Origin: an uncultured Elusimicrobia bacterium
GTDB lineage: Bacteria; Elusimicrobiota; Elusimicrobia; 2-01-FULL-59-12
DNA: 64,000 bases
Direction of reading: 5' to 3'
Assembly (NCBI GenBank): GCA_964441955.1
Contig: CAYTWA010000004.1
Coordinates: forward strand, 82,681 to 146,680
Part shown: piece by piece, positions 3,542 through 54,236 of the stretch
Layout of the letters: every line of letters begins with the position of its first letter
Position numbering within the stretch: the stretch's first letter is position 1
The notes under the pieces: model-generated
The model's input: only the letters and a program-made list of their open reading frames with translations
Databases searched by the model: none
What the model was told of the DNA's origin: nothing
Translations under genes and position numbers: made by a program

Positions 3542-3559
3542 AACCTTTCAGACGGTTTT

Positions 3560-7659: not shown

Positions 7660-7699
7660 TTTTCAAGGAAATTTGATCCTTTGTCAACAATATTCTATT

Positions 7700-20652: not shown

Positions 20653-22035
20653 GTGATGAATGCAGCCGTTGAGTCCGTTTGGGAAGACGTTTTATCAATT
20701 CTAAGACCCCAGATGAACGATGAATCGTTCGACCTGTGGCTGCGCCCCATCAAAGCCCTCACCTTCGATTCCCAGCGCCTGACACTTCAAGTCCCCAATG
20801 CTTTTTTTGCCGATTGGCTGCGCGACCACTATCAGCCGAAAATTGAACTCATTCTTCGCGAACGCCACGGCGAGCCCATCGGCCTTTCGTTCAACGTGCT
20901 TCGGCCGGTGGAAGACCTTTTGCGAACCCACGAACCCGCCCCCGCGTTGGCCCCAAGGCCCCTGCCGCCTCCTCCACCGGCGAGTGAAACGTTTTTAAAC
21001 CCGCGCTACACGTTTGACAGCTTTGTGGTCGGTCATTCCAACCGGTTTGCTCAGGCCGCGTCTTATGCGGTCGCCAAAGATCCGGGGAAGGCGTATAACC
21101 CCTTGTTTCTATATGGCGGCGTGGGCTTAGGCAAAACCCATTTGATGCATGCCATCGGCAACCATATGCTTCAGTCCAACCCGCGGGCACGCGTGCTTTA
21201 TACGAGTTCTGAAAAATTCATCAATGAATTCATCGATTCGCTGCGTCACGAGAAAATGAACCAGTTCCGTCAAAAATACCGGAACTTAGACTGCCTGTTA
21301 ATCGACGACATCCAATTTTTGGTGAACAAAGAAAGCTCGCAAGAGGAATTCTTTTATACCTTTAACACCCTCTACGATTCCCGAAAACAGATCATCATCT
21401 GCAGCGACCGTCCGCCGAAAGAAATCCCGACTCTGCAGGAGCGTTTAATCACCCGTTTCGAGTGGGGTGTGGTCGCCGACATTCAGGCGCCGGAACTGGA
21501 AATGCGAATCGCCATCTTGAGGGAAAAAGCCGAGCAGGAAAAGCTCTTTGTGCCCGATGACGTCATTTTGTTTCTGGCCAGCCACGTCCGTAAGAATATT
21601 CGAGAGCTCGAAGGCGCGCTGATTCGCGTGGTGGCGCATTCCTCGCTCACCCACGTGCCGTTAACCGTGGATTCGACCCAGGTGGTCATGCGCGATTTAA
21701 TTGCCCGGGAAGAGGCCGCCGCGCCCGTTTCAGTGGACCGGATTCAAGAAATCGTGGCCAAGCATTACCATGTCGACCTTCAGGACATGAAATCCAAGCG
21801 CCGGACCGATGCTATCGCTTTTCCAAGGCAAATTGCCATGTACCTTGTCCGGACGCTGACCGATATGTCGACCACGCAAATCGGCGAATCGTTTGGCGGA
21901 AAAGACCACACTACCGTAATGCATGCGTCCAACAAGATTAAAAACAAACTTGAAACAGACCCATTCTTTACCGCCCTCATCAACAAAATCATCCAAGAAA
22001 TTCGTCAGGGCTCGCCGACCGGACGGCAGGGATAA
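20653..22035 (+). CDS. dnaA: Chromosomal replication initiator DnaA
   Basis: AAA+ motifs GGVGLGKTHL and LLIDDIQF. C-terminal DNA-binding domain. Confidence 0.95.
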   Translation: MMNAAVESVWEDVLSILRPQMNDESFDLWLRPIKALTFDSQRLTLQVPNAFFADWLRDHYQPKIELILRERHGEPIGLSFNVLRPVEDLLRTHEPAPALAPRPLPPPPPASETFLNPRYTFDSFVVGHSNRFAQAASYAVAKDPGKAYNPLFLYGGVGLGKTHLMHAIGNHMLQSNPRARVLYTSSEKFINEFIDSLRHEKMNQFRQKYRNLDCLLIDDIQFLVNKESSQEEFFYTFNTLYDSRKQIIICSDRPPKEIPTLQERLITRFEWGVVADIQAPELEMRIAILREKAEQEKLFVPDDVILFLASHVRKNIRELEGALIRVVAHSSLTHVPLTVDSTQVVMRDLIAREEAAAPVSVDRIQEIVAKHYHVDLQDMKSKRRTDAIAFPRQIAMYLVRTLTDMSTTQIGESFGGKDHTTVMHASNKIKNKLETDPFFTALINKIIQEIRQGSPTGRQG

Positions 22036-22264
22036 AACCGGCATAACCGCCCCGCCTTGTGGGTAAGCCCGCGGCCTGGGGATAGGTGGGATAACCTCAA
22101 CATGTTATTCAGGTTCTGTCCCGATGATGAGAGATGGGAAAAGATGTTGAAATTAAAAGTCTTTGATTGCTCCAAAAATGTTGTGCCTGTTTTCCAATGC
22201 TCTACTACGACTACGGCTGGTTTCTTTATATAGAGAGTTAAATTAGATAGACTGGATAACCTTC
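22036..22264. promoter_or_regulatory. oriC-like dnaA-dnaN spacer: DnaA-box-like 9-mers plus an AT-rich putative DUE
   Basis: GTGGGATAA (22076..22084; 8/9 to TGTGGATAA) and CTGGATAAC (22250..22258; 7/9). AT-rich block 22150..22245. Confidence 0.5.
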
Positions 22265-23370
22265 ATGCAAATCGTTTGTTCGAAGTCTGAACTTCAAAAA
22301 GGCATACAAATTGTTCAGTCGGCCGTGTCGACCAAAAGCACGCTGCCGGTCTTGTCTAACATTTTATTGGAAACGAAATCCAATCAACTAAAGCTGGCCG
22401 CGACGGATTTAGAAGTGGGGGTGCGCTGTCTAATTAAAGCGGAAGTGGTCAAAGAAGGCGCTTTAACGATTCCAGCTAAAACCTTCAGCGATTTCGTAAA
22501 AACCCTTCCGGACAATCAAGAAATTCACTTAAAGGCCGAAGATTCTTCAAAGATTGAAATTCGCGGAGGGAAGGCGCGCTGCGTTCTCTTGGGGTTGCCG
22601 AAAGAGGACTTTCCCGTTTTACCGGATTTTAAAGAAGAAAATGCGTTGGATATCGATTCTAAATTGTTAGTCGAGATGATTAAGAAAACGTCCTTTTCCG
22701 TATCGACCGATGAAACTCGCTACATTTTAAACGGAATTTGCCTAAAGCTGGAAAAGGGAGTCGCGCGAATGGTGGCGACCGACGGCCGCCGTTTGGCTTA
22801 TGTGGCGCGTACGATCAGCGATAAAAAAACGTCCGTATCTGTCATTATTCCTTCCAAAGCCGTACGTGAAATTGAACGGCTGCTAACAGTGGAAGGAAAT
22901 GAAAAGCCCGTCAAATTAAGCATCACAGAAAATCAAGTGGCATTTAAGATCGGCGAAACGGTCATTATTTCTCGCTTAATTGAAGGTAGTTTTCCAAACT
23001 ACGAGCAGGTGATCCCTAAAGCAAGCGACGTGAAAGTCCAAATTTCCACAAAAGATTTCTTGACGATGACGCAGCGCACCGCCTTGGGAAGTGGGGAACG
23101 CGGCGGCGCCGTTCGGTTTATGCTGGAAAAAGGCAAACTAAAAGCCATGGGAACGGCGCAAGGACGCGTGGAAGTGGAAGATGAGCTCCCTGTAGATTTT
23201 TCTGGAAGCAACATTGAAATTGCCTTTAACCCGCAGTTCGTTTTGGATGTGTTGAAAAATACCGATTCGAACCACGTGATGTTGGAGCTGTCAACCGCCT
23301 TAAACCCCGGTGTGATCCGTCCTGTGGGCGATGACCAAATGCTCTCGGTGATCATGCCGATGAGAACCTG

Positions 23371-23371
<1 letters not shown>
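22265..23371 (+). CDS. dnaN: DNA polymerase III beta sliding clamp
   Basis: 368 aa. Typical N-terminal MQIVCSKSEL and three-domain length. Immediately downstream of dnaA. Confidence 0.95.
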
Positions 23372-26130
<2,759 letters not shown>

Positions 26131-26131
<1 letters not shown>

Positions 26132-28638
26132 TGGCCGATACAAAACTACCCATCCCCGAAGAACCCAACGACCGCATCATCGCTCGAAACATCGAGGATG
26201 AAATGAAAACCTCGTACATCGACTACGCGATGAGCGTGATCGTAGGCCGCGCGCTGCCCGATGTCCGGGATGGTTTTAAGCCCGTCCACCGCCGCATTCT
26301 TTTTGCCATGAAAGAAATGGGGCTTACCCACCGCTCGGCCTATAAAAAATCGGCACGCGTCGTCGGGGACGTTCTGGGTAAATTCCACCCGCACGGCGAC
26401 TTGTCGGTCTACGACGCCATGGTGCGCATGGTGCAGGAATTTTCGCTGCGCTACCCCATGATCGACGGCCAGGGGAATTTTGGATCCATCGACGGCGACT
26501 CCCCCGCCGCCATGCGCTACACCGAAGTTCGCTTAGGGGCCATTGCCGACGAGGTGCTGGGCGACATCGATAAAGAAACCGTCGACTTTGGCCCCAACTA
26601 TGATGGCTCGATGGTGGAACCGCTGGTCCTACCCGCGAAGCTCCCGAATCTTTTAGTCAACGGGTCTTCGGGAATCGCCGTGGGCATGGCGACCAACATG
26701 CCGCCGCACAATTTGTCCGAAGTCTGCGATGCGATCATCGCCTACATTGAAAATCCCAACCTCACGACAGCCGAAATCATGAAGATCATGAAAGGGCCCG
26801 ATTTTCCAACCGCCGGCTTTGTTTTGGGCCGCGGCGGAATTAAAGACTATTTCGAAACGGGCCGAGGGTCGGTGGCGGTTCGCGCCAAGACAGAAATCGA
26901 GGATATCCGAAGCGGAAAGCAAGCCATCATCGTGACTGAGATCCCATATCAGGTGAACAAAACCACCCTGATTGAATCCATCGCCGATTTGGTTCGCGAT
27001 AAACGAATCGAGGACATTTCCGACATCCGCGACGAATCCGACCGCGACGGCATCCGCCTCGTCATTGAAATCAAGCGCGAAGGCAACGCCCAAATCGTTT
27101 TAAACCAGCTTTATAAACACACCTCGCTTCAAACCACCTTCGGCGTCATCATGCTGGCTTTAGTCGGCGGCCGGCCGAAAGTGATCCCGATGCGAGACAT
27201 GCTGAAATATTACGTCGAACACCGCCGCGAGGTGGTGATCCGCCGCACGCGTTTCGAGCTCGCCAAGGCCGAAGCCCGCGCTCATATTTTGGAAGGGTTA
27301 AAAATCGCGCTCGACAATTTAGACAAGATCATCAAAACGATCCGCGAATCCAAAGACACCGATACGGCCCGCATGAAGTTGATCGAGAACTTTAAGCTCT
27401 CGCGCATTCAGGCCCAAGCCATTCTAGACATGCGCCTGCAGCAGCTCACCGGGCTAGAGCGCAAAAAAATTGAAGACGAGTACGAAGAGCTCTTGAAGAC
27501 GATTGCCCGATTAAAAGGGATCTTAGCGGACCCCCGGCAGGTGCTTAACATCATTGAAACCGAGCTCTCCGAACTTAAGGAAAAATACGGCGATGAACGC
27601 CGCACCAAAATTACGGCTCCCGCGGAAGATTTGGCCATTGAAGATTTGATCGTGGAAGAAGACGTGGTGGTGACTTTCTCTCACGCCGGCTATGTGAAGC
27701 GACTGCCGGTCACCGCCTACAAAGCGCAAAAGCGCGGCGGCAAGGGCGTGACCGGGATGACCACGCGCGATGAAGATTTTGTCGAACAGTTGTTTGTGAC
27801 CAACACCCATGCTTACTTGCTGGTTTTCACCAATAAAGGCCGCGTGCACTGGACGCGCGTGTTTGAGCTTCCCGAAGCGGGGCGCGCCGCAAAAGGCAAA
27901 TCGATCGCCAATTTCATTCAACTCTCCGGTCAGGATGAAAAGATAACCGCGGCGATCCCAGTCCGGTCTTTTGAAGAAGAAGCCGCGAAAGAAACCCATC
28001 TGTTTATGTGCACCAAAGAAGGCACCGTCAAAAAGACGCCCTTGGCCGAATTCGCCAACCCGCGCCGCGGCGGCATCATTGCCATCAAGCTGGAAGACGG
28101 CGATAGTTTGATCGGCGTCAAACAAACCGACAAAAAAGCCGAAATCATTTTAAGCACCCGTGAAGGCTTGGCCATACGCTTTAAGGGAGAGGATGTGCGC
28201 CCGATTGGCCGTGCGGGCATGGGCGTACGCGGCATTCGGTTGGATAAAGGCGACGTGGTAGTCGGGATGGAAGTAGTGGATAAAAAAGACGTGCTCTTGG
28301 CCGCCACGGAAAACGGTTACGGCAAGCGCACGGAAGTCGAAGAGTACCGCTTGCAGTCCAGAGGCGGCCACGGCGTCATCAACATTAAAACGAGCGACCG
28401 CAACGGTCCCGTAATCGGCGTGCGCAAAGCCAACGATGGCGATGACATCATGCTCATGACCCAAAAAGGCATGTCGATTCGTCTGCCCGCCACGGGCGTT
28501 TCGATCATTGGCCGCAATGCTCAAGGGGTGCGTCTGGTTCGCTTGGAAGAGGGCGATAAACTCTCCGCCGTTACCCCGATGGCCAAAGAAGACGAAGAAG
28601 GCGACGACAAACAAGACGAATTACCGCTTAAGAGGTAG
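26131..28638 (+). CDS. gyrA: DNA gyrase subunit A
   Basis: Active-site region [13 protein letters not shown]-like [16 protein letters not shown]-terminal beta-pinwheel repeats. Confidence 0.97.
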
Positions 28639-30537: not shown

Positions 30538-31620
30538 GTGATCCAACTCCCCTTTCATTCGTACGAGAAAATCGCAGAACGAACCGAAGAATGGAAACTA
30601 GACGAAGCAGGATATCGTCTTTTGCATTCTGTCGACTGGGTCGTTACAGAAAAAATTCACGGGGCAAATTTTGTCGTTGCAACGGACGGCAAAAGCGTGC
30701 GTTTCGCAAAACGAAAAGCGTGGCTTGAAAACGAGGAAGAGTTCTTTGGTTATCAACTCTTAAGACCCACCTTGACACCACGAGCGTTGCGCTTGTTTTC
30801 TGATATCCAAAAACAAGATACCGCCGTTCAGGCCGTTTTCATATACGGAGAGTTGTTCGGTGGGTCCTATCCACATCCCGATGTGCCTGCCGACCCACGA
30901 GTGGAAGCCATTCAAACCGGTGTTTATTATAGTCCCACCATACAGTATGCCGTTTTCGATTTGGCGACACTCTCCATTTCCGTTCAGCGTCGATATTTGG
31001 CTTATGAAGAGGTTCGGCGCTGCGCGCAAGAATCTGACTTATTTGTTTTGCCGCCTCTGTACGTTGGGGCTTATTCCAAAGCGATTTCCTACCCGCTGGG
31101 GTTTGAATCGAAGATTCCCTTATGTTTAGGGTATCCTGCGCTCAGAGGACCGAACAAAGCGGAAGGCGTCGTGATCAAGCCCGTCCAGTCGCTGGTGTTG
31201 CCTTCAGGGGAGCGCATCCGTCCGATTTTGAAGCGAAAAATTCCGGAATTTAAAGAAGACACACGGTTCATGGAGGCGCGCAAATGGAAAGCCGTTGCGA
31301 AAACGATTCTCGATGAACAGGCCGCCGCCGGGTTGTTGTTCGATGAACTCGAAGCGTTATTGACACCACAGCGTTTTGCCAATGCGCTTTCAAAAGTCGG
31401 CAGACTCGATCAAAGTGCCGCCCATCGACAACAACTCCAGGACGTGGTGTGGGAGGATGTGTTGAGTGTTTTTAACAGCAACCATGGAGATCTCTGGAAC
31501 ATGATGAGCAGCCCAGCGCGAAGAGAATTGGAATGTTCAGCACGCAAGAAAATTGCTTTCTGGATTTCTCTCACCGATGGGCAAAATGCACCATCTAGAG
31601 AATTTCGAAGTCCACAGTAA
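30538..31620 (+). CDS. ATP-dependent RNA ligase, Rnl2/DraRnl-like nucleotidyltransferase
   Basis: Motif I EKIHGANF (KxHGxN), motif III YGELFGG, motif IV AVFDL, motif V AEGVVIKP. GTG start. Confidence 0.65.
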   Translation: MIQLPFHSYEKIAERTEEWKLDEAGYRLLHSVDWVVTEKIHGANFVVATDGKSVRFAKRKAWLENEEEFFGYQLLRPTLTPRALRLFSDIQKQDTAVQAVFIYGELFGGSYPHPDVPADPRVEAIQTGVYYSPTIQYAVFDLATLSISVQRRYLAYEEVRRCAQESDLFVLPPLYVGAYSKAISYPLGFESKIPLCLGYPALRGPNKAEGVVIKPVQSLVLPSGERIRPILKRKIPEFKEDTRFMEARKWKAVAKTILDEQAAAGLLFDELEALLTPQRFANALSKVGRLDQSAAHRQQLQDVVWEDVLSVFNSNHGDLWNMMSSPARRELECSARKKIAFWISLTDGQNAPSREFRSPQ

Positions 31621-37945: not shown

Positions 37946-39316
37946 ATGACCAGATCACTCTATCGGTGTTTCTCCTTCGCGCTCACCTTTCTGTTGGTTT
38001 TTGAAGCCAATCGTGTAGCCTTTGCGGTGCCATGTCCGGGCTCGGCCATTCATGCTTTTCAACCACCGTCTGCCGTTTTCAGCGAACAAGCGCTTCAGGC
38101 GGGCTACGTACTGGCCTTTCACCGAGAAGTGGTGCCTGTGGCAGCACGAATACGTCAAAGTCTTGGCCATGTTTGGCTTGATATTGGTGGAAAGTGGAGT
38201 GCCTTGCCGCGACCTTTGCGATGGAGACTTCAGGCCGCCGGAGGTGCGGCGGGAATGGTGTTATGGAAACTCCTATCTGACAATGTGACGAGTCATCCCA
38301 CTGCAATGGTAGGGATGGTAATCGATCCCACCCAGTGGCTGACGGTAGCTCTTTCTGCAAAACACTTGCTGACCCCAATTCTAAGAACAAAGAAATTAAC
38401 CCAACGACAGCAGAATGTGTTGCTCGATCTTTTAACGGCAGGCATGGACCCGAATTTCCTCGCCAAGTCCGCGAGCTGGTTGTTTATTATCAACGCTACC
38501 GAAGACGGAGAAGATCGTCCCGTCTTTGCGAGAGTAAGGGCTTTGAGATCGGTGACGACCGATTTCGATGATTACATCCGTTCTCCTCTTGCCGAAGGCG
38601 AAAAGAAGCCAAATTGGATGATCCTCGATTTCAATCTAACCAATGTAAGGACGAAGGTGGCAATGATTCGCCGCATTAACGGCCGCGACGAGCAAGTGCC
38701 GTCCCAGGTGCTTAGAGAATTTCTCCGGGTCGATGTCAAACTGTGGGAGGCCATTCTCCTGATGGGAGATCAGATGAGCGTGAAAGTGCAAAATGCGTCT
38801 GAGCTTCTTTCTATATACGCCAAAATGGCGACATACCCAAGCTATGTGAATCAATGGAAAGCCGTCATCGGAAACTCGATGAGCAAAAGGCATTTGCCTT
38901 TGATGGCTAGAGCCTTTGATGCCGATCCTCAAACAACAACCGAGATCATGAAAGTGATTTATCGTGAAATTAAAAGCGATCAAATTCTAAATGAGGATGA
39001 ACGCGCAGAAGGCGCATTAGATCAGGATCCCTCGCGGCCCGCTCGTGTCGAGAGTTATAACGCGAACTTATCGATTGTTGGTCTTCGTCGTAACCAGTGG
39101 TACGCAAAAGAAGTGTTTCGAAATTTAAGAGAAGTTTTGGGGGCGGGGCTTGAGGCTACTCGCCAACGAGTGGCGTTACGAGAACTCGAGCAGCTGTCGG
39201 GCTCAATCGCGAGGCAGTTAAAGAAGTTTTTCCTGAAATACGAAAGACTCGAACGCACCTGGCAAGAGGTTGAGCCCATGGGGAGCCCCTATCGCCTGTT
39301 TAAGGCTTCCTCCTAG
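37946..39316 (+). CDS. Secreted hypothetical protein (456 aa)
   Basis: Signal peptide FSFALTFLLVFEANRVAFA. No recognisable domain. Lower GC than housekeeping genes (by eye). Confidence 0.55.
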   Translation: MTRSLYRCFSFALTFLLVFEANRVAFAVPCPGSAIHAFQPPSAVFSEQALQAGYVLAFHREVVPVAARIRQSLGHVWLDIGGKWSALPRPLRWRLQAAGGAAGMVLWKLLSDNVTSHPTAMVGMVIDPTQWLTVALSAKHLLTPILRTKKLTQRQQNVLLDLLTAGMDPNFLAKSASWLFIINATEDGEDRPVFARVRALRSVTTDFDDYIRSPLAEGEKKPNWMILDFNLTNVRTKVAMIRRINGRDEQVPSQVLREFLRVDVKLWEAILLMGDQMSVKVQNASELLSIYAKMATYPSYVNQWKAVIGNSMSKRHLPLMARAFDADPQTTTEIMKVIYREIKSDQILNEDERAEGALDQDPSRPARVESYNANLSIVGLRRNQWYAKEVFRNLREVLGAGLEATRQRVALRELEQLSGSIARQLKKFFLKYERLERTWQEVEPMGSPYRLFKASS

Positions 39317-39331
39317 CGGAACGGTGCCTGT

Positions 39332-40360
39332 ATGCGCCCATCATTTGCCATTTTGGTTTCCCTGTGTCTCTTTCTTCAACCGAGTTTTCGAGAGCGTCCC
39401 ATTTCTGACGAACGTTTCCGTATCGGAGAGTTTCCGGTCTTTTCTGCTTGTGCCTTGGCGGTTATTAGCCCATGGAGTTCAAACCATCGTCATTTTCATG
39501 TTTTCTCTTCGGGTGTTAAGTTTGCTCGCGCGTTAGCATCAGGGATTTCGCAGTCGTCGTTGCCGTTATCGTACGTCACACCACTACTCATCATGCTGGT
39601 CAACACTACGCTCCCGCCCGAGAGTGTAGTTTTGTTGGCAGCCACAATCCCCCCAAAATCGCCCAAACGAACAAGGCCTCACGCACCTGATAACCCTGAT
39701 ATGGGAACGGTCGGACGATATATTGAAATTGTGAGCCAAGGGGGAGACAACGTAGAGTTGAAACGAAAGCTCCGAGCTTATTCGACAACCACGGGTAAAT
39801 CGACGAACAGTGAAACGTCCTCATTTCCGCTGGGCAGGGCGTACGCCCAGCCTGTGCAAATAGATCTGCCCCTTGTTCCGGTCGGTACGTCTGTTCAGTG
39901 TACTCCTGTAAAAACCCTTTCAGGGCGATATTACTTTCGCTTGGAGGCTCCCCAATCAAAACCCTTTCTCATTCGAATCGCGCACTCTTCGCCTTACGTT
40001 GAGATTATTCCGAGCGTTGAAGTGGGCCTGATTGCCGATCACATCGAAGCGTTGGTGGGAGGACTCTCATCGGCTGGCTTGACGAGAGACCTCGACCATT
40101 TGACCTTTACGATGAATGGAACAAAAACGACAAAGGGATCGGAATTCGCTTTCGGTCCCTATGCGATGGTGTTAGCTGGGGCCAGCGCACAGGGTGATTT
40201 CACGATCCATGTGGTTCGCGAGGAAACTGGTTCTTTGAGTATTCAAGTGACCGATCAACAGGGCTCATTGTGGCATAGAGCTCTCATCGGTTATGCCCCT
40301 TATTTCGTGCCCACGGAAAAGCGACGAAGAACACGCGAATTAACAGGTCGGGCGGCCTAA
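39332..40360 (+). CDS. Secreted hypothetical protein (342 aa)
   Basis: N-terminal hydrophobic segment AILVSLCLFLQPS. 16-nt gap from the upstream gene. Confidence 0.5.
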   Translation: MRPSFAILVSLCLFLQPSFRERPISDERFRIGEFPVFSACALAVISPWSSNHRHFHVFSSGVKFARALASGISQSSLPLSYVTPLLIMLVNTTLPPESVVLLAATIPPKSPKRTRPHAPDNPDMGTVGRYIEIVSQGGDNVELKRKLRAYSTTTGKSTNSETSSFPLGRAYAQPVQIDLPLVPVGTSVQCTPVKTLSGRYYFRLEAPQSKPFLIRIAHSSPYVEIIPSVEVGLIADHIEALVGGLSSAGLTRDLDHLTFTMNGTKTTKGSEFAFGPYAMVLAGASAQGDFTIHVVREETGSLSIQVTDQQGSLWHRALIGYAPYFVPTEKRRRTRELTGRAA

Positions 40361-40454
40361 AAATAGGCCATACGGCTTATATTTTCAGCAATACGTAATA
40401 GAGACGTTACTTTGATCGGTTATGCCTAATTAGAGAGATTTAAACGATTTAGCT

Positions 40455-43400
40455 ATGCGAAAAACACCCTTTCGGTCGTGGTTGTCCGCAGTTCTTGTCA
40501 GCGCCCTGCTGATCGATCCCCATTGGGCCCAGGCGATGAGGCCTCCGGCGCGCCTCGCTGCGCCCTTGGTCATGGCTCCCTTCGAACAATGCGCGCTGAA
40601 GGAGCGTGCCTTTTATTTCAACGCTTTTGATCACCTGTTCGAGCAGTGGCCGCGGCTTCGCTCCAAAGTGTTTCGTCGTGTCTCCCCCATATCTCGTCTC
40701 GAGCGCACCTGGCCATGGGTTTTGGCGGCGGCTGCGACGCTTTATGGGCTCAAAACGGCCTTTTATCCAGACAGTTTTGTTTCCGATATTGGGACAAATT
40801 CCGTTGGGCTTGCGAGTTTTATTGGCTTCTTGGCCATCAAAGTAGAAACGCTTTTGCTCTTTCGTCATCCAAAAATCCCCGTGTCGCTCCTCTACGAAAA
40901 TCCGGAATCTGATGAATTTCATGCCATGAGCCGGCGCCTTGAAACCGAAGTTAAAGAGGCTCTTGAGCTGGTCAAAATTCAACATCCTGAGATGGAAGAC
41001 GACGAAGCCATAGCGATGTCGGTGGGGATGAGAAATGTTCTGGAAGATTCTCGAGTCATTTATCGATCCACATTTTCTGAAGGGGAAGAAGATAGCTACC
41101 CTGCAATTTTTTGGATCAACCCGCCGGAGGGTCTCGAATTTTTTATGGAGGGGGGGCGTGCCTCCTGTCTGCACTTTGATCCCAATGCAGGGGTCGCCTA
41201 CCTGTCGCTACCGCTTTACCAGGCACTTGCCTCGACACCTATCAACCCCAAAACATACGTTGAGGTGATATCGCAGTACTTGTTCTTGCGTATGAGCGGA
41301 GATTCCCACGAAGGAGCTCTCCAGTTACTAGATCCAGCACTACTAGCCCAGATCGACCAATTCCTTGAAAATCGCTTGGTCGCGCAATTAGAGGCTGAGC
41401 GCCAAGCAAAAGAAGCTGAAGACGTTAAGCTCAGCGCGCAAGCGAAGAGGGAACTTGTGAAGCTTGTCAAAGCGCATGGGGTGGAATTGATGTCGTCGAA
41501 CCAAGACGAATGGCTGGGTCAAGACTGGTTTCTACAAAAAGAGAAACGAGATCCCGCGGGCTGGGTCGATCGCTTGCAGAGAAGAGTGATAGCGTTAAGT
41601 GAAACGGCGGAGGGAACCCCGCTCTCCTACGAAGAAGCATTGAAAGAGTGGGTTCCGCAATACAGTTTCTATCCCCATGCCACAGGCAAAACGTATTTTG
41701 GACATCTCATCTCGGAGGGATATCACCTCATCAATAAACGTGCGGGAAAACGACTCACGCTGGGAAACACGGTCATTACCAAGGGCGAGTTTGCCGACAT
41801 CGGGATTACTCCGGCCAAATGGGAAAAAGCAAAAGAATCGTATGAAACCAAAATGCGCGAAGCCAATGAGGTGTGGGAGTATTGGGCGCGACCTCTTTCT
41901 ATTTTGAGAGATATCGATACCGTCAAAGTCCTCCTGGAGAAAGCCGGCTTGAGTGACGAAGATCAAAAACAGTTGTTGGGTTTTGTTCTTGTGGCCGCGG
42001 AGCAAACTTGGGCCTCGGATTTCGATGTGTCGCAACTGCTGCTACGTGCGGGCGAAAAACCTTTTTCGTTAAGTGAAGAAGCGTTAGCCCGGATTATTGA
42101 AGCCGCCGATCGACTCGCTTTGGACGCCGAGTTAACCTCTCTAGCACAAAAACGTCTTCTCTCGCCTGCCGCTCGCATGCGCGGGCCGGTGGGGCTTGCT
42201 TCTGAAAAAGCGAAAGAAGGACCTTCGGGTAATCCCCTGTTTTGGAACCGCTGGGCGGAGGCCTACACCAAAATCTTCAAACAGTTTGCCGCCTATCCCA
42301 TCAAAATCTTTGCGGTGGGAAGAGCACTGGTGTGGATGGAGCGCCAAGACCTTCCTTATGCACTCAAAGCCAGCCAAATCAAGACGGTGCTTGCCGGTGG
42401 TTCAGGTCCCATGATTCTTCTCCATGCGCTGGCTGAAATTAGAGAGCTCCTGGTTCGTTTAGGGATTGCGGTCGCACGGATGCGAGTCATCAGTTTGGAT
42501 TTCGCGTTCAATATGTTGGTCCATGGGAAAAACGCTGCTTCACGGGTTCCAATCGCGAGCGACGCTGTAGCGGCCAATTTGACTGAGATTCTGCCGTTTA
42601 AAGATGGGTCGATCGATTTTTATGAGTCGGGAATATTCGGAACAATCGGTGATGACGTCAACAGAGAAGGGGTATCCAAAAAAATCCATTTTCTCCTCGA
42701 AGCCAATCGCGTTCTCCATGGACCAGAACAGAAAGACTCTGACCCCAAGCGAGAAGGGCGCGGGGGGTTACTCGTTTTGACCGTAAAAAACAAACCGATT
42801 CCCGAGAACCTTCAAGAGGTGCTTGCGCAATTTGGATTTGAAATCGTTTCAGAAAAGCGTCCTCGTGTCTCCCTTTTAGGCGGACTGCTTTGCAAACTCA
42901 CACACGGAGAGCATGCACGGGATAAAGCGTCGCATTTGAAAACGCAAGTGGGAGGGGCCTCGATGCTTTTTGCCGTCAAGCGACGGACGCTTTCGCCAAC
43001 CGAGATCCAACGTCTTCGCGCATCATCCACAGAACCGCATATCGTTGCGCTACGAGTGGCCCTGACTTATGATGATTCGCTTAAGACCCAAGAAAAGCAT
43101 CACCCGACACCTCGGCATTGGAACGGTCATGCGCGCCGGCCTGGCCTCGAGCGGCTTGAGTGGAAAGACGTGCAACCCGAAGAGCTTCTTCCGCCAATCA
43201 TTAAGCGCACCGACATCCTCATTCGGCATCCGGATTTCATTAAGGCGTTCGATCATTTGGAAGTCTGTCGTTTCCACAATTTGCTAAGTGTCGATCACGA
43301 CCAGCGGTTCGATGATTTTCAACGCGGCTGGGATAACCCGGCGATCGTGGAGTTTGAAGTCGAAGAAGTGGAATGGATTTTAAAGCGCGTGCAGGAGCGC

Positions 43401-46400
43401 CGAGGGTACAAAGGGCGCGGCCGCACCCGGCCGACGCCGTCCGCAAAAGAGCCTCCCAGTGCATCCCCTCAGGGGACAAAACCCAAAGCATCTAAACCTC
43501 CAACCCTTTGGGAGTTGGCTGAACGGCTGAATCGAGAATCCATTGAAAACGGAAAAGGAGAAATCTTTAACCGTGAACGCTCCGCTTCCGAGCTTCTTCG
43601 TTTGTCCGCGATTCACAATGCCCGGTTCATGCTTTCCGTGGAAGATGCGCTCGAGCAGCTGGGGCGGCTTTTTCCAGGAGCGTCATTGGCCGCTTTCACC
43701 GTAGAATTTCTCTTAGAGTGGGCCCTTCGTGCCCCAGCGGACCGGTCATGGCATGAAATAAATACGCTCTTTACAAATACAGGACTTCGTTTAGAGGGCG
43801 ATGTGATTCAAGCTGTATGCCGCGTCTTCGGTATTCCCGTTTTTGAAACAACAAGAGATGAAACTTCTCCGGTCAAAAATACCCGCAACGAAGCCATAAA
43901 GCGAGCGCTGGGTGAATTGCAAGCCAAAAATACGAACCCTGCGGCAGGGGTTCGATTCAAACCTGTGTTAATTATCGATTTGATTTTTGCAGTGAAAAAC
44001 GCGCGCGATGAGGTCGACCGAAATCGCCGAATCAATCAAATTCTCAAGGAGCGTCGGCCGTCCATCATGGATGTTGAGCCTGATGATGTCTATTCCGTAT
44101 TGCTTACCGAGAAATTGATTGCTGCTCCGGATCCTGTCGCTGTACCGGAAACATCCCCAGAACTCGTTCAAACCCCGGGGGTCCCCGTTTTAGGGGAACC
44201 AGCCGGTGCTCAGCCAAGTCCCGCCGCAAACGACCCCGAGAAAGGCAGCACGCCACTCGTCATCGCTTTGCCCCAAATCCCTCCTTCTGCAATTGAAGCT
44301 GCCGCAGCAGAGTTAAGAGCGCTCATTCATTCAAAGGGGGGAAGACAAGCGCCTAAAGCCACGAATGCTTCGGTGCTAGCCTTTCTCGATAAGGAATCTG
44401 ATCCTGGAAAGATTACCAGTAAAATCAATCACCAATTCGGGGTCAGTTTACGAAGGGATGAAGTCGAACCCATTCTTAGAAAGCATGGCCTCTGGCCTGT
44501 CACTCAAGATCAGGTCAATGGGGAGAACAGACAGCTGGACGACAAAGCCATAGCTCACCTCAGGGAATGGGTTTTGGAAACCTTTGAAGGAAAGAAGATT
44601 AATAAAGAGACCTTTGTCCCTACATGGGAAGAGCTCGTACCAGAAGGGACGCCATATCGACAAGAAGTGATCTCGCATGTCGAACAATACGCCTCAAAGG
44701 AGTTTGGCGTAAACCAGAGAGATCAATATCGAACGCTTTATAGCCTTGTGGGTTTGATCAATCGTGTAATCGGACCACAGGGGGCTCTCCTGCAAGCGTA
44801 TTTTCATCCACAAGAAAAAAAGTGGGAGATATTCCATATCCGTACAAAGCCAGCTCTCGACAACACATATCACATCGATGGAGATGAAATTCGTGCCTAT
44901 GAGTTTTTGGGGCTTCCCAAAGATTACACAGTGAGGTTCCCCGGTGAACAATATGGCATCGGTTGGAATCATCTAAAGAAAACAGCGGAGTTTTTTCTCA
45001 AAGAAAAAGGCGACACCCCCATGCAAAAAGCCTTTGTCGCCCAAATGAAGCAAGTGGATGCAACCGTTGATCGGCTGGCTCGCACAATGGATCTGCAAAA
45101 GTTGTATTCCCAATTGGCCCTTGCGGCGGCGTGCAATACGTCCAATCGCTTGCACCAAGAAGCCAGTGATCGAGAAAAAATACTTTATGAGCGTGAGACG
45201 CCATTACAAGAGACTCTTCCATGGGTGGTTTTTGCGCAAAAGCTTCTCAGAAAAAAGGGACCTATGGGTCGGTTGTATATCGATTTAACCTCCGAGCTTC
45301 GTGGAGACAAAAAGCAGCCGCGTTTTGATGTGGCCGAAGGAGTATCAATGGCTTATGGAGCCCTCGTGAGTATGGCTCGGCTCGAAAATCCTCTTATTGG
45401 CACCGTAAACATATTCGCTCAGGATCATAATGACCGCATGATGACTGTCGACGCTCTTATGCTTCTTTACGCTTTTTCGGAGCAACTTGGGATGAGTGTA
45501 GAGCTAAAGGATTTGATTATCGAAAGAGACGCCATCTACGAACGACTTATAAAAATGACACCTGCGGAACTTAAAATGCTGGCTCAAGAAGTCTTGAGAG
45601 ACAATTTCCTTCTCGAACTAGATATGACGGACATCCGCCACATCAAAACAAAAGTGGTGGAGCAAGAAGCGACTGACCCTGCTATTACGGAGTCCAAAAC
45701 AAAAGAAGAAGCCGTCGCTCAATTAAAAGGAACCTTAGAGCAATCCTGGAAAGAGGGGCATTTGTTGGAGTCGTGGTCATCGACAAAAACTATGCTTGAG
45801 AGCACTCTGGGTGAAATGCCAGAGGAAGTTAAGCGTGCGGAGCGGCTGGCGCTGGACTCCACCATCGCCAATCGTTTTGAACGAGCGATTCGCTTTACGG
45901 AGTTCTTGGCTGCGCTCAATCGCCATTATTTAAATGGACATGGCTATTTCATCGCGATTGATGAAAATCAACGCATGGTAATTGAAGAAATTGAAAAGGC
46001 CAAAGAAACGTTCCGCGTCAATCCAACAAACGAGGAAATGACAGTCTATCCTCTCAAACGCATTCCTATGGATACCGAAGTTGTCACTTTTCACCAAATT
46101 GCAGGTGCGGCAACAGCCTTCCCCAAAACGTATGGCATCCGATGTGCGAACGGGTTGTCGGCCATGGCTTCTGAAGTTCGGAGAAAAGAGCCGCCTTCGA
46201 TGAAAGGGATAGGAAATAGTCTGAACCAATGGTTAGAAAAAGCGTTTGGGGCACCATTACAAATCGAAAATATTATCTCTCCGATTGAAGGCATACGGAC
46301 CGAACAAGCGTTAGCCAATATGACCGCGCGGCTCCTAGGAAGAAATGCCTACCGGAATTCAACAGTAGAGAAGCCGTTGTTGGAGCAGCATGTCTCTCCA

Positions 46401-49400
46401 CAGGCAGTGGAAGCCCGCTCGTTTATTCTCGCCTATTTCAAGCCCAAGAGCAGTTTAAGGAATTTTTATGAGCACAACGTCAGTTGTCAGAAAGATGCAG
46501 ACACTCAGAACAATATGGCCCATGCGATGCTGTGGGTTTACAGCTTTTTAAATGGTCTCGCCACACATGAAAAGCCATCCCACGTTCTAGCCAACACATT
46601 AACGGTTGTCGCTAGCGAATTTAGGAAATCGTCGCAAAAGAACTTCACCCATGCGCTGGAGCTAAGTGCTCTTATAGTTCATGTCTTTCCAGATCTTGCA
46701 TCGCAGATTTCCGAAAACAAGAACCTTATGTCTCTCTATACGCCGAACAATGTGGCGAGGCTGACTCACACGCTTCTCACATACTCTGAAGATCAGCTTA
46801 GAGATTTGGCTATACAGGTGATGCGTGACCAATTTACCGCCCAAATAAACATATCGAAGGGTCTCATCGAAATTGATTATTTCGACGCAAAGACAAAGGA
46901 TGTTAGCGACGAGCTTCTTGAAGAGGCCCAGATGATATTGACGGAGCTAAAGGAGGCATTTCCTGTAGAGGCTTTAGGGCTCACATTGCAGCTGGCTATG
47001 GAATTTGTCCAAAACCAAACGGTGGAAGGTGCGCTTAAACTCTTAAAAGCCATTGGCGCCGCACTCGATGGTGGCCTGGCAGCGGCGCTTTTGGATGCGG
47101 TGGGTTCAAGCCTTGAAGCCTTATACGACAAAATCTGGGCTCCGATGACATTAACACCTGTACAGATTACGGCTTTAAGTGGCGACATTGACCGCGTGCT
47201 GCTTCCGATGCTGGCCGATAAGCGCTTAACCCCCGAGCGAATGGATGCGCTTCTAGGAGTGTTTGAGACGCATTTTAAAGTGCCTGTGAAAGAATCGCTT
47301 CGCCACGACGTTCGCCTTCTCGCTTTAGCATCAGGCGACGGAGCTTCGAAAGAGTCTCATCGTTCCGCCGTCTTTTTAAAGCTCAACGAAGACTACTTAA
47401 AACCTTTGGGATATTTAATCGATCCGTCGCAAATCAGCTATTCGAGCAAGTCGTTAAGATCAGTGCCAATCTACCGAATACTTGAGGCACCCATTGTTTA
47501 TCAATCGGCCGATAAGGCAATCTCGTTTTATCGCTACACAATTCAAGTCGTGAGTTCATCCGAGTTTTCCGGCCAAACGTATCATCTGCCTTATTTTTAT
47601 TCTGCGGCGATCGGCGTTTTAGTAAACAGCGAGGCAGTCATGAAGGAGGCGGAAGCTCGAATCCAAAATATGCCTCAGTTAAAGACCCAAGCGAGAATAC
47701 TTCAAACCGGCTCGCGGGACCAAAAGACGGTCTTCCGTTATGTGTCACAGGTTATAAAGTGGGATGCTAAAGCCTTTCCTAAGAATGTCAAGTTACATGA
47801 CTTGGCTAAGGCCAGGGAAGGGGCGCTTCTTGAACGAATTCTTGTTGAAACAGCCGCTATTAAATGGGCTCAAGCGAGTCTCAATGCGCATAAAGATTAT
47901 CCATTAATCAATGGGTTTCATTGGCAAGACGAAATGAATTCATCTCTCGACATTGCGCGAACGGCCTTTGCGATAGACGGCGCATATGAATTCGTCGAAA
48001 CCATGACAAACCTGGCTCGCTTACAGGCGACGTCGCTTGGACAGGTCCGGCAATTTAGCTCGATATTCTCTCATCGATTTGCTTATCTTCATGCCATGCG
48101 GCGTTCGCCTTCCGGATTTCTAGCGAATCGGTTCGATTACTATTTTGTTCCAAAAATTAGTGGTGTTAAACCAGAGCAATTAGGCGCTCGCCTTGGGGCG
48201 GCGGACATCCAGTTTTTTACTGATTTAGCTAGCCACGTGTTAAACAAATCCTACATCGGAACAATAGCCCCAAATGAATTTGAGAGCATGATGCTGAAGC
48301 TCAGTGATGCACTATTGACATGGGATGAGGCTCGATTGACCGACCTTGCCGATCAAATGCTTAGAAAAACCTACCGAATCACTGTCAACCTTCGCGAAGA
48401 CGGGCAAATAGAGATCGTGCCAATGGAAAAAATTGATAAACCTGTTAACGCGCGTGCGCCTCAGCAACTGACGACACCGACTCTCCAAAACATGTTAAGT
48501 CTCATTATCGAGCCTATCTTTAAGGCCGGATTAATGAACGACGATCAGGCAGATAAGCTTCGGGCTGTCTTAGCGATTTTCGTGGATGGTCTTCCGTCAG
48601 AGGTCCAAGAGGCGCTGAATCATGCGGCTACCTTTACCGCATCGAGTCAGGAGTCTTACGACGCGCTGCATGAGTTTCTACGCGCCCTCAACACCTATTT
48701 TCTAAAGCCGGGTGGATTTTTAATTGATGTTAATCCGGTAGGTAGCTCGAACAAAGGAGATATTCCCGATTTTCATCTTAGGGCCTATAAAATCGATAAC
48801 ACTCAAAGCCAGGTCTATCGTATTGACGGCACCGATTTAAATGTGCCGTACAACGTGGCTGAAGAAAGCACACCAGCCGATCCGACTATGCCGATGTGGG
48901 CATCACGCCACTATGGTTTACGCCTTCTAAATCCAACAGTCTCTGCCCTCGTCAACAATAGTTTGCCGTTCTTGCTTTTGTGCAGAAAAAACACGGCTCT
49001 CTACAACAAAAGCCCTGGTCAGTTTTTTCCACAGGATCGTGGACGCATTCGTGCTCAGCGCGAGGTCGCCCGTTGGCTCGATGCGGCGCTTGGAGAAGCG
49101 CCCACACAATTAAATGTGACGAATTTATTCGGAGAAACCGATAAAGAAAAATATTTAAGTATCGTATCCGCTCTTGAAATCGCCCGACACAGGCTTATGT
49201 CAGATCCAACTAAGAAGTCCGAACTCTCGGCTAGCGGCATACCATGGGCAGAATACGACCACCGCGCTTTTGCCGATTATTATGTTCGTAAGGGTTCTCT
49301 GGCAGAAACGCTATTGTTTGAAACTATGCACGATTCTGAATCTGTCGATTGGGAAGGCCACGAGCGACAGCAAAACGCAAGTTTTATTTCGCATCTTTTC

Positions 49401-52400
49401 GGCTTCTTACATGCGATGCGAGATGATGAACGGCCAAAATCACTTGCCGCTGATTTCATTCATTGGTTTGGATGGCTCGGTACTAACAAAAAAGGGTCTA
49501 AAATCGGATTTCAGGCCGGGACAAGACTTTATGTTCTAGCGCACTATCTAAATCTGGCGGGTCAATTAACGGTTAAAGATTTCGCCGAGCTCACGCCTCT
49601 GGCGATCGAGCAAATGAATAAAGTAAGCCAGGCTCTTCGTGACATGTCGCCCTCCGATCGCAAAGCCCTGGCCTCAAAAATCCTTGAAGATAACTTTACG
49701 CTTTCCTTTGATTTTCTTCCTGACCAGCGGATCATCATGCACGACAGTTCTAGGGAATCGATATCATCCCAAAATGCATCGGATTCGGCATTGGACGATG
49801 AGGATCTAGCGAGCATCGCGAAAGTCATTATGGATCAGCTCATTAAGAGTTTTGGTCAGTCCATTAGTACGTTGACGCAAGAGATGATCTTGTCGATTCT
49901 TCGCCGCGCAGACCCTGATCATACGCACGCGGTGCTTCAGCAAGCAGAGCTGACGAAAATCCCAGGACTTAAAGAATGGCTTACCCAAACCGTCTCGGAT
50001 ATTTTGAATATTCAGAAAGGAATGAAACTCCCCGTTACCCCTGAGATTCTCAAAAATACTCTTCAAGTAATATTTGGTGATGCCTTTAATAGGGGTTACC
50101 TGAGCGAGGGTGATCATGAGCGGTTTCTTTTTCTCCCAAACGCTTATTTCGACGAACCTCTACCAAGGACATTCAAGGACGCGGCCAAGCATGCGCTCAC
50201 GTTTACGAGCGCCACTCCAGAAAGTAGGCAGTCGCTCGAAAAAGTGGTGTTGTCGTTGAATGACTACCTAAGACCTAACGGGTATCAATTTTCGGTTGAT
50301 CCCGTTTGGTCTGAAGGAAAAATAAATTGGGTGATCGACGTGATTCATATTTCTTCGAAACCTCGCGCGACTTATACGGTCGAGGGATTCTCGGATCTCA
50401 TTCATGTGCATGAGGGGATTGTGCTGGCTTCGGGAAAAGCCATAGAACATAGTGCGTCTTCCAAGTTTTATGGCATTACGGTGTGGCCTTCGATTGCGGA
50501 ACAAAATGCGAAGCGCTGTTTGAAGAATATCGAAGCGTCGAGAGTGAATACGTCTCCAAAAGCCGCTTCAAAATCAAAACGATCCCCATTGTCGCTTTCG
50601 GCAGAAAGAGAGATGGTTAAATGGTCGGATAAAGTATTCGGTCGTAACGTGGAGCATGGGCAGATTTTCCAGGCCTTTTTGGATGATGTGGCGGCTTTGG
50701 TAGGGGAACATGCGGCCTATGTGTGGGCTAACCACAACGTCTTAGGCTCCGCCCCTCAAGATGAAGCCTTTATTGAAGAATATCTTCGACAGGGGTCCTA
50801 CTTATGGCATTTGTATCGGGAGCCCAGTGATAGGGAATCCCTATTTTCCAGTGAAGAAATTAAAAGTGCCTATAAGGCCCACCGCTTTGTTCGGCTTTTT
50901 GGCTCTCTCCAAAAGCTCAGGCAGCCGAAGGCCATGGAATATTTAGCGTTGCTAATGTTTAAGCAATTGACCACGATTTCGGGTAAACACACTTTGGATG
51001 TGGACTATCAGGAGGCGATATGCTTTTCCCTGCTGGCGCGTGCGTGTGATATGCCGGCAGACTGGAAAGATTTCATTAAGCAGGATTTAGAGGCTGTAAA
51101 GCTCTTCGAACGTCTTAGTGCGCGCCTGCTTCAGATGGACAACAAGCAATTGAGGGCGTTAAGTGAACGGATCATTGAAGAAAATTTCAAGATTTATTTA
51201 GAGTTCATGCCGGACAACCATATTGTTCTGCAACCTACCTCCAAACCGAACAACACACCAGCAGATCCTAAAGAGGTGCATTCATTGATAAAAGATCGTC
51301 TGATTCCGGCATTTGAAGACGGTTTTGTTCCAGAGGGATGGTTGCAGGATTTTCTAAAGAATCTTTCGAGACAGTTAGCGGAAAATGCCCCGATTTCCGT
51401 GACGCAGGCCGCTAAGGAGGCAGAAGCCGTCCATGAAGGAGGCCCCACTTGTTATCGCGCTTTGAATCATTTTGTTAAATCCCTGAATTCGGATTGGCTG
51501 GAACGGCGAGGTGTTGTCATTGCACTTGTGCCAAAAAACAACGAGACTAAACCCGGGTGGCACGTTGAAGTTTATCGTGTAGACCCTAAACGCAGCCGCC
51601 GTTATATTTTCGAAGGAAAAGATTATGAGCCGCTGTTATGGAACGTCGGAGAATTAACGCGTCTTGATGGTTCGATCGCTCCCTTCGAAGCACAATTCGA
51701 CCGACACCCTCACTCCGGTATTGTTTTTTTCGAAAAAGTGTCCCATGTATTCAACGCAAAAAGATTGAACACATTGGCTTTTGCAATCAGGGCCCAGCAG
51801 GTACTGAATACTGATTTTCCATTTACGCAACACGAGAAAGCCGTCTCCGATTGGTTTAGGGTCTTTGTTGATGATGATGCAATCCCAGAAAGGATCTCTC
51901 AGGCAATGCATGAGGTGGACCGTGATGCCGCCTTGGTTGAATTAGCCGCTGTCGAGAATGGTCATTCGCTTTTTCGAGAAGGCTTAAATAAGCAAAAGGC
52001 TGATCAATTTTTGCGCGATGGATCGATGGCGAGACGAGCCTATTACGAATCTCTGAATCGTGCACCCCATAATTTATTCGCTGCAGACGTCCTGCTGCGT
52101 GAATTTCTCGTGGTTTATGGATGGTTGCACGCCATGAGAAAGCCGATGCTTGCTCGGCGCACGCTGGCTCGTCGCGCCCTGCTATTTGCGATTATTCTTG
52201 CAGAGAAATTCAATCAAAAGGATTTGAAAATTCTACCTGAAGAAGCACGGCTTCTTTCCTTATTAGGAGATGCCCTTATGGGTGAAAAGGCGCCTCAAGC
52301 AAGCGCCTTGTTTGGAGAAAAGGGTGTCGTTTATGCCGCTCAGGTTTGCGACGCGCTGAAGGAGCTCCCCGATGTTAAGCTGGCGGCGCTCGCCGACCGA

Positions 52401-54236: not shown

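Follow-up and report, generated by a model that had tools for sequence, protein, structure and literature searches.

Background

By predicted fold, the nearest solved relatives of the protein module described here are the peptidase DPP III (family M49) and the DUF6421 oxidase PolE. In brief, the lower domain of DPP III consists of a five-stranded beta core with flanking helices, and its upper helical domain holds the zinc site (PMC9820243). The two lobes close on an extended peptide, which pairs with the beta core. PolE, and with it DUF6421, is DPP III-like with a replaced metal site, and the conserved metal site of DUF6421 is H(E/D)xxH-X(21-23)-E (PMC12614342). Here we describe a 13.8-kb gene for a giant protein of 4,593 amino acids (aa), found in a 64,000-nucleotide stretch of DNA from an uncultured Elusimicrobia bacterium (assembly GCA_964441955.1, contig CAYTWA010000004.1, positions 82,681 to 146,680 of the forward strand), the whole of which is called the window below. 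The protein carries seven tandem modules whose fold, as predicted for one of them, probably bears a distant resemblance to that of DPP III and DUF6421. We suggest that it is a giant repeat protein whose modules form a new family, probably of pseudo-enzymes.

The giant gene and its homologues

40455..54236, + strand: whole giant gene, 4,593 codons plus stop, ATG start

A preliminary description of this DNA reported a single uninterrupted open reading frame (ORF) with repeats conserved at the protein level only, and both points are borne out. The frame on the + strand is unbroken from its ATG. With approximately 49% GC and stops making up about 3 of 64 random codons, the chance that 4,593 codons stay open is negligible. 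The ATG start is backed by the N-terminal alignment with the homologue P0003 (MRKT... in the window, MRKN... in P0003). Tandem Repeats Finder detected zero DNA-level repeats within the gene, so it holds no repeats that could mislead an assembler, and the repeats seen in the protein are old. The gene is intact and real. Its GC content at third codon positions (GC3) is 0.50, versus 0.61-0.68 in the neighbouring housekeeping genes.

When 1.84 billion cluster representatives were scanned exhaustively with phmmer, five proteins matched, namely two giant homologues and three fragments of 106-163 aa. The giant homologues are P0001 (5,538 aa, JGI 3300020926) and P0003 (5,586 aa, Logan SRR6962291). The module family is thus extremely rare. 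Neither the whole protein nor its modules had a significant match in Pfam, NCBIfam, PADLOC or PHROGs, sequence and profile searches of the PDB gave nothing at E < 0.05, and tblastn against plasmids and phages gave no match; membership of an anti-phage defence system or a phage thus found no backing in PADLOC, PHROGs or the plasmid and phage searches. A word-indexed protein search returned nothing for two modules or for the head region, and with the methyltransferase-like profile it returned only the ORF already known from the P0001 locus. A metagenome scan with the head profile found just the two organisms already known.

The homologues share a common order of parts, a head followed by nine or approximately 11 modules and a hydrophobic C-terminus. 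P0003 is collinear with the window's protein from the first residues (MRKN...DPHLAQA...PFEQCAL) through the head and carries nine modules according to the module hidden Markov model (HMM). A separately assembled JGI record contains its gene with 99.99% identity across 14.7 kb, and a gene call of 5,589 aa is on record in ENA and JGI assemblies. P0001 has approximately 11 modules and a C-terminal 2OG-FeII_Oxy_2 (AlkB-like) domain, and its head is encoded immediately upstream, split into two ORFs in the JGI assembly but contained in a single 1,278-aa ORF in the Logan assembly. Judged by these alignments, the proteins form an undescribed, very rare family with a fixed architecture across three genomes.

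It should be noted that the P0001 head stops at a single in-frame TAA inside a module, in both the JGI and Logan assemblies (L085 9857-9859, L088 13838-13849). An extra frameshift within this head is present in the JGI assembly only. The in-frame TAA could be a nonsense mutation, a site of read-through or the result of gene fission.

Module architecture

The seven modules are all encoded on the + strand:

44307..45677, + strand: module 1, long form with a small helical insert, aa 1285-1741; 36% identical to P0003 module 6
45678..46904, + strand: module 2, short form, aa 1742-2150; 38% identical to P0003 module 5
46905..48443, + strand: module 3, long form, aa 2151-2663
48444..49766, + strand: module 4, short form, the modelled one, aa 2664-3104
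49767..51257, + strand: module 5, long form, aa 3105-3601
51258..52487, + strand: module 6, short form, aa 3602-4011
52488..54014, + strand: module 7, long form, aa 4012-4520; its terminal hairpin adjoins the membrane anchor

Comparing 200-aa chunks with the whole protein by BLAST gave 28 off-diagonal matches with E values from 1e-2 to 9e-13 and 21-46% identity. They lie within aa ~1627-4513, at offsets of approximately 410-510 aa and multiples thereof. The module HMM detects seven copies, and the motif LAxxILxxNF (the 'ENF' motif) occurs seven times, at spacings of 409, 513, 441, 497, 410 and 509 aa. These results agree with the seven modules first proposed, and the motif distances reproduce the reported alternation of ~1235 and ~1500 nucleotides.

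Other parts of the preliminary description need revision. When the units were aligned in different phases, LAxxILxxNF and the beta-hairpin after it were found to close each module. The 'ENF' motif, previously placed first in the module order, is thus the last element, and module 1 begins at aa ~1285; the unique N-terminal region is accordingly about 1,285 aa long and not ~1,700 aa. In the correct phase, seven complete modules span aa 1285-4520, the last one abuts the C-terminal hydrophobic region, and the module HMM matches every copy in the homologues in one piece.

Modules 1, 3, 5 and 7 have an additional N-terminal insert of approximately 80-100 aa, which is helical. In module 1 and the homologues it reads as a small helical unit with the pattern x(I/V)xxL...G...V..IL...GL. 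The alternating spacing is due to the presence or absence of this insert alone. The two-module super-repeat proposed earlier, three copies plus one extra module, was rejected as a recent duplication, since the module cores show no i/i+2 relationship; the best pairs within the protein are 4-5 (85 bits), 4-6 and 2-7.

The arrays are fluid between genomes. Module 1 has its orthologue in P0003 module 6 and module 2 in P0003 module 5, so that the order is inverted, and a block of four modules is duplicated in P0001 (B1~B5, B2~B6, B3~B7). These observations imply that the arrays evolve by shuffling and block duplication. The orthologous modules lie at different positions along the array, at 44307-46904 in the window and at 11495-13945 in L084.

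Conservation was read from 25 aligned modules of the three proteins. The near-invariant residues are L87, G158, F276 and F418 (module 4 numbering), followed by N83, W211 and N417. We found no column with a conserved His, Glu, Asp or Cys among the 25 modules. The conserved residues are structural. The 'HAMR' motif, earlier listed as common to all modules, has its His in 4 of the 25; the pattern kept at this place is hydrophobic, F..L..(M/L). A catalytic role for this His was therefore rejected.

Predicted module fold

AlphaFold2 was run on module 4 only, using an alignment whose 25 rows are modules of the three proteins. The model is confident, with a predicted local distance difference test score (pLDDT) of 87.5 and a predicted template modelling score (pTM) of 0.88. 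In brief, it comprises four helices, a six-stranded beta core, approximately thirteen helices and a terminal beta-hairpin. The module is 12% identical to DPP III of Corallococcus (PDB 5zum). Foldseek against the PDB gave no significant match, with 5yfb_B ranked second at E 0.19, and against BFVD it gave no significant match, so the likeness to DPP III is not confirmed by Foldseek. We suggest that the module fold probably resembles, at a distance, the fold of DPP III and DUF6421. The modules had been called previously unrecognisable; this holds for sequence methods, not for the predicted fold, which has a distant relative.

We did not find the catalytic motifs of either family. A regular-expression search of the 4,593 aa gave 0 occurrences of HExxH and HExxGH and 0 of the second M49 motif, EEx(R/K)A(E/D) or EExxAE. 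Pfam models, including Peptidase_M49, gave no match to the whole protein and no consistent match across the 25 single modules. The DUF6421 metal site, H(E/D)xxH...E, does not occur in the modules, which have no conserved metal ligands. With neither the catalytic motifs nor any conserved His, Glu, Asp or Cys, the modules do not belong to M49 or DUF6421. On the predicted structure, they would at most be catalytically dead descendants or analogues of the DPP III fold.

Head region

40860..43835, + strand: conserved head region, aa 136-1127; no PDB or Pfam match
42300..43040, + strand: segment resembling class I S-adenosylmethionine (SAM) methyltransferases, aa 616-862
43407..43490, + strand: Pro/Lys-rich linker 1, aa ~985-1012, read from the sequence
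44130..44306, + strand: Pro-rich linker 2, aa ~1226-1284, immediately before module 1, read from the sequence

A head of approximately 1,130 aa is kept in all three homologous proteins. The head in the window is 40-42% identical to that of P0003; with the two ORFs that precede P0001 the identity is 25-27%. Within it, aa 616-862 contain the ordered motifs VLAGGSGP, SLDFAFNML, LPFKDGSIDF and RVLH...GRGGLLVLTV, and the alignment shows this pattern in all three homologues; AGGSGP and SLD, candidates for the G-rich SAM loop and for the acidic residue after strand 2 of a Rossmann-like fold, are visible in the head alignment. The loop is degenerate in one homologue, and P0003 has an insertion of approximately 115 aa between the last two motifs. 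Pfam Methyltransf_11 matched the window's head with E 0.008 (17.2 bits) and the homologue at the P0001 locus with E 0.0012 (19.9 bits), both under the 21.2-bit cut-off. The top PDB profile match of the segment is a SAM-dependent methyltransferase, 8k76 (E 0.079), with the same motifs. The class I SAM methyltransferases (Methyltransf_11/25) have the order seen in the head, a G-rich loop, LDFAxxML, LPFxDGSxDF and RVL...GG, and provide its best weak Pfam and PDB matches, yet the scores stay below the Pfam cut-off.

An AlphaFold2 model of the head segment from a two-row alignment had a pLDDT of 36.6 and was unusable, and an hhalign comparison of the head profile with the KsgA methyltransferase encoded in the window was uninformative. 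We therefore call aa 616-862 methyltransferase-like, an unproven assignment. Outside this segment, the head (aa 136-615 and 863-1127) is likewise conserved but gave no library match.

Protein ends and proposed membrane topology

40455..40535, + strand: signal-peptide-like N-terminus, aa 1-27, MRKTPFRSWLSAVLVSALLIDPHWAQA then M
40578..40598, + strand: PFEQCAL motif, aa 42-48; identical in P0003
40713..40859, + strand: two hydrophobic segments, N-terminal anchor with one or two spans, aa 87-105 and 117-135
54015..54233, + strand: C-terminal two-helix membrane hairpin, aa 4523-4541 and 4557-4579, with basic tail RNNPETPRRFKAAA

The N-terminus consists of an n-region with a charge of +3 (MRKTPFRSW), an 11-residue h-region with a mean hydropathy of 2.74 (LSAVLVSALLI) and the stretch DPHWAQA. 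By inspection, the AQA site appears to fit the -3/-1 rule. P0003 conserves the DPHxAQA end, and P0008 has a similar one. The 59 residues after the signal-like segment (aa 28-86) are net basic, with 11 Lys/Arg versus 5 Asp/Glu. The two hydrophobic segments that follow have mean hydropathies of 0.79 (aa 87-105) and 1.89 (aa 117-135); an acidic loop separates the two, and RHPK flanks them on the C-terminal side. According to the alignment, the first of the two is the stronger one in the homologues.

The C-terminus had been described as a single hydrophobic segment without a sorting or secretion signal. It is indeed hydrophobic, and no family model in Pfam or NCBIfam matched it, so that no secretion or sorting signal is recognised there. 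It contains, however, two segments and not one, joined by a 15-aa uncharged loop into a hairpin with four Lys/Arg on either flank. P0003 reads into the same hairpin, again with basic flanks and a neutral loop, followed by a ...RRAA tail.

The protein was also called secreted, which we consider doubtful. The composition is helical and cytosol-like, rich in Leu, Ala, Glu, Arg and Lys (L 11.2%, A 9.9%, E 7.7%), in contrast to surface adhesins, which are beta-rich. In P0001, four hydrophobic segments with a strongly basic central loop are read before the AlkB-like domain, which places the modules and a cofactor-dependent enzyme on one side of the membrane. The basic flanks of the hairpin, the AlkB-like tail of P0001 and the composition favour a bulk that faces the cytoplasm. 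A relative of the upstream partner protein, which joins a similar N-terminus and a hydrophobic segment to a SNF2 ATPase, points the same way. From these features we infer a mostly cytoplasmic protein that is tethered to the inner membrane at both ends.

Proposed organisation and function

The reading that we favour combines the description of the protein with its topology, namely a membrane-anchored giant of a rare family with a cytoplasm-facing bulk. We hold it with even confidence. In brief, a signal-like segment, cleaved or uncleaved, would be followed by a short outside stretch and then by one membrane span. The cytoplasmic bulk of approximately 4,400 aa would be re-attached to the inner membrane by the C-terminal hairpin.

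The function is more tentative. DPP III closes on an extended peptide, and here seven such clamshells are predicted in a row without catalytic residues; a multivalent binding scaffold is thus the simplest interpretation. The catalytically dead modules may offer consecutive sites at which extended peptides or other ligands bind, and the array would then make up a multivalent, membrane-proximal scaffold. The chemistry may be supplied by the head and by the accessory enzymes of the relatives, that is, the fused AlkB-like dioxygenase and a SNF2 ATPase fused to the upstream partner in another genome. Taken alone, a peptide-binding scaffold function is doubtful even at best.

Several points weigh against the membrane-anchored, cytoplasm-facing giant and its suggested role. 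The N-terminus looks like a cleavable Sec signal, and the net basic stretch of aa 28-86 is ill-suited to a periplasmic loop. If aa 87-105 and 117-135 are both membrane spans, the bulk would be located outside. Only one module has been modelled, and ligand binding by the modules is suggested purely by analogy with the DPP III fold. The methyltransferase-like signal is sub-threshold and its structure model unusable. Finally, the gene neighbourhoods described below are not conserved, barring an upstream partner gene in two of the three genomes.

Genomic neighbourhood

39332..40360, + strand: upstream partner gene, 342 aa; kept beside the giant gene in a second genome
37946..39316, + strand: orphan ORF, 456 aa, with the leader VFSEQAL; no family match, low GC3

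Upstream of the giant gene are genes for a histidine kinase, a response regulator and a PIN-domain protein, followed by the two orphan ORFs listed above. Downstream genes encode a TPR protein, a Pro-rich protein of 185 aa, a HEAT-repeat protein and a HAMP-PAS protein. Scans for promoters and terminators in the vicinity of the giant gene scored no better than shuffles, and Rfam and tRNA scans of the window gave no match.

The first ~470 aa of a 2,205-aa protein encoded directly upstream of P0003 are homologous to the product of the ORF at 39332-40360; one alignment covers 218 aa at 29% identity (E 1e-20), and another, at 32% identity (E 1e-4), covers the first ~87 aa. The 2,205-aa protein (L090 3222-9839) matches SNF2-rel_dom with 39 bits and Helicase_C with 31 bits. 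In this protein, a signal-peptide-like N-terminus and a hydrophobic segment precede the SNF2 ATPase, an unusual arrangement. A scan of a collection of genome contigs with the ORF at 39332 found no relative. The ORF at 37946-39316 possibly belongs to the same gene set as the giant gene. In the P0003 locus, the giant gene is followed by a Bat-type operon, MoxR-DUF58-BatA-VWA-TPR-BatD-TPR (L089/L090 26881-35286), which has no counterpart downstream of the giant gene in the window.

The giant gene and the orphan ORFs at 37946, 39332, 7856 and 3741 have a GC3 of 0.49-0.52, whereas gyrA, gyrB, mfd, dnaA and the histidine kinase, TPR, HEAT and HAMP-PAS genes lie at 0.61-0.68; dnaN is an exception with 0.52. 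By this measure, 37946-54236 and 3741-10510 look like compositionally distinct islands. The ORFs at 3741-6329 and 7856-10510 are paralogues with 64% identity (862 and 884 aa) and without a family match. Between them, on the opposite strand, lies an AAA_14/DUF4143 ATPase gene. In the six-frame translation, the signal-like segment of the 3741 copy is interrupted by an in-frame stop (...LAGLLC*PLS), and on this reading the copy may be truncated or decaying.

The PFEQCAL motif of the giant protein has look-alikes, (F/Y)x(E/Q)(Q/E)AL, at the same distance from the start in the ORFs at 37946, 39332, 7856 and 3741 and in the neighbours of the homologues. A search of the six-frame translation of the window with the regular expression [FY].?EQ[AC]L gave hits at three such N-termini only. 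Across the three genomes, at least nine large orphan proteins encoded near the giant genes have a signal-like segment followed by the motif approximately 15-25 aa later. In these the motif, (F/Y)x(E/Q)(Q/E/C)(A)AL, is usually followed by a hydrophobic span. The leader sites are near 38078 (ORF 37946), 7982 (ORF 7856) and 3801 (ORF 3741) in the window, and at L085 26750-27298, L088 6598 downwards (- strand) and L090 3222-9839. One of these proteins is a divergently encoded orphan near P0001, 2,310 aa long by the gene call (L088 1-6598, - strand), with the leader ...TTFQQEAL followed by a hydrophobic span and no Pfam match. HMM cross-validation of the leader, between the giants and the neighbouring ORFs and between genomes, was not significant. 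Homology of the leader across proteins or genomes was therefore rejected as a statistical claim, and the likeness is visual only.

The window is otherwise the replication-origin region of a diderm bacterium, with mfd, two surA-like genes, pdxA, ksgA, dnaA, dnaN, gyrB and gyrA. The origin cluster dnaA-dnaN-gyrB-gyrA is located at 20653-28638. In the matching ENA contig, a 98-aa DciA call extends from the end of dnaN into the start of gyrB, corresponding to window positions ~23371-23667. The best GyrB matches among the GTDB species representatives are a metagenome-assembled genome (MAG) at 64%, an Endomicrobium MAG at 62% and an Elusimicrobia MAG at 61%, and by these matches the organism is probably a distant, deep-branching relative of the Elusimicrobiota. 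The exact dnaN product is also found in ERZ3430527, SRR7369924 and SRR7369911. Two further genes lie amid the housekeeping genes, one for a T4 Rnl2-like RNA ligase (RNA_ligase and T4_Rnl2_C, 30538-31620) and one for a HipA_C kinase (12106-13035).

Alternative explanations

The alternative that survives best, which we nevertheless consider unlikely, is an exported giant, a surface or periplasmic protein whose signal is cleaved and which is tethered by its hydrophobic ends, serving adhesion or the organisation of the cell envelope. The signal-like N-terminus with AQA is kept in the homologues, and the two further hydrophobic segments would leave the bulk outside if both span the membrane. In addition, a largely extracellular location has often been predicted for giant proteins of uncultivated bacteria (bioRxiv 10.1101/2023.11.21.568195). 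An exported protein would fit poorly with the helical, cytosol-like composition and the basic flanks of the C-terminal hairpin, and we found no adhesin-type domain in Pfam or NCBIfam. Moreover, the methyltransferase-like head, the AlkB-like tail of P0001 and the SNF2 domain of the partner's relative would lack SAM, 2-oxoglutarate and ATP outside the cell.

In another alternative, the giant protein and its look-alike orphan neighbours would be effectors translocated into a host or prey cell, where the hairpins would enter the target membrane and the enzyme-like domains would use the recipient's cofactors. We rate this somewhat below export. The paired hydrophobic segments at both ends resemble the bilobed hydrophobic domains of chlamydial inclusion-membrane proteins, and the enzyme domains of the relatives (AlkB-like, SNF2) are of a nucleic-acid type. 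The GC3 of about 0.50 in the giant gene and four leader-bearing orphans, versus 0.61-0.68, fits an accessory class. Endomicrobium, a lineage with intracellular symbionts, is among the nearest GyrB matches. Against this reading, the leader common to the genomes is without statistical support, and no component of a secretion system was found among the window ORFs scanned against Pfam.

The leader-bearing neighbours also allow a wider speculation, which we put forward tentatively. The giant may be the flagship of a class of large, helical, cytosol-type proteins sharing a leader of signal-like segment, motif and hydrophobic span, although we regard this as rather improbable. Such a class would include pseudo-DPP III arrays, the methyltransferase-like head, the AlkB-like dioxygenase and the SNF2 ATPase, encoded in islands of atypical composition in a few uncultivated bacteria, and we are equally hesitant about that membership. 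The leader might then be a new sorting or anchoring signal, for assembly of a membrane super-complex or for delivery of effectors that act on nucleic acids or proteins; this, too, is an unlikely proposal.

An array of active enzymes, in which each module is a peptidase or oxidase of the DPP III or DUF6421 type with a diverged site, is very improbable. The similarity in fold to DPP III and to the Fe/pterin oxidase PolE speaks for it; against it, HExxH, HExxGH and EExxAE occur nowhere in the protein, and the near-invariant residues among the 25 modules are only Leu, Gly and Phe.

The origin of the window in a metagenome-type assembly, the absence of the exact protein from a gene-position collection (exact look-up) and the in-frame TAA and single-assembly frameshift of the P0001 homologue might point to an assembly artefact or a decaying pseudogene, a scarcely credible explanation that is disposed of by the recovery of the P0003 gene in a separate assembly and the blank Tandem Repeats Finder result, and opposed by 4,593 open codons not explicable by chance and by collinearity with independent homologues from the start codon through the C-terminal tail.

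A membrane-anchored giant with its bulk in the cytoplasm thus remains the reading that we favour. Few parts of sequence space are as poorly understood as the giant genes of uncultivated bacteria. Here such a gene offers a new domain family of approximately 410 aa, confidently modelled and not placed by sequence methods, whose fold points to a catalytically dead DPP III clamshell. It also offers a tractable entry, with a defined module, a head domain, a conserved partner gene and two full-length relatives in 1.84 billion clusters. If the scaffold interpretation is true, it would represent a new way to build a membrane-proximal platform in bacteria. If the proteins are effectors, they would point to a new delivery signal.

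Comparison with known systems

DPP III is a soluble, single-copy enzyme of 537-737 aa, whereas the module here has approximately 410 aa and occurs in 7-12 tandem copies in a putatively membrane-anchored giant. DPP III binds zinc through HExx(G)H and EExxAE, whereas the giant protein has neither, and there is no sequence-level signal between the two. DUF6421/PolE (PDB 9j2e) is a single-domain Fe/pterin oxidase of polyoxin biosynthesis, mostly actinobacterial, that has kept its metal site, in contrast to the modules, which are without conserved metal ligands. To our knowledge, no tandem array of such pseudo-enzymes has been described.

Giant adhesins and polymorphic toxins are alike in size and in their tandem repeats. 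Those proteins, however, are built from beta domains of approximately 100 aa, whereas here the modules have approximately 410 aa, are mostly helical and lead into a transmembrane hairpin. The preliminary description noted the lack of RTX, Ig/Big, cadherin, YadA and Rhs motifs and set the protein apart from classical adhesins and polymorphic toxins. We agree, since Pfam and NCBIfam gave no match on the whole protein and the eponymous repeat domains were not encountered. Nor do the modules map to a known adhesin or toxin repeat family, their relative in fold being neither adhesin nor toxin.

The 'Archaeovorin' and 'Dockerin-type' giants of Omnitrophota are also long ORFs of uncultivated lineages, with transmembrane segments, reported parts of methyltransferase type and poor annotation by HMMs (bioRxiv 10.1101/2023.11.21.568195). 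They exceed 30,000 aa and have many transmembrane segments, SecA-DEAD, glycosyl hydrolases and transferases, peptidases and dockerin or discoidin domains (bioRxiv 10.1101/2023.11.21.568195). The giant protein described here has none of these domains according to Pfam and no sequence relationship to them in the phmmer scan. It works like nothing described in detail; closest to it come the giant, poorly annotated membrane proteins of uncultivated phyla, with another size and domain content, and the single-domain enzymes of the DPP III/DUF6421 fold.

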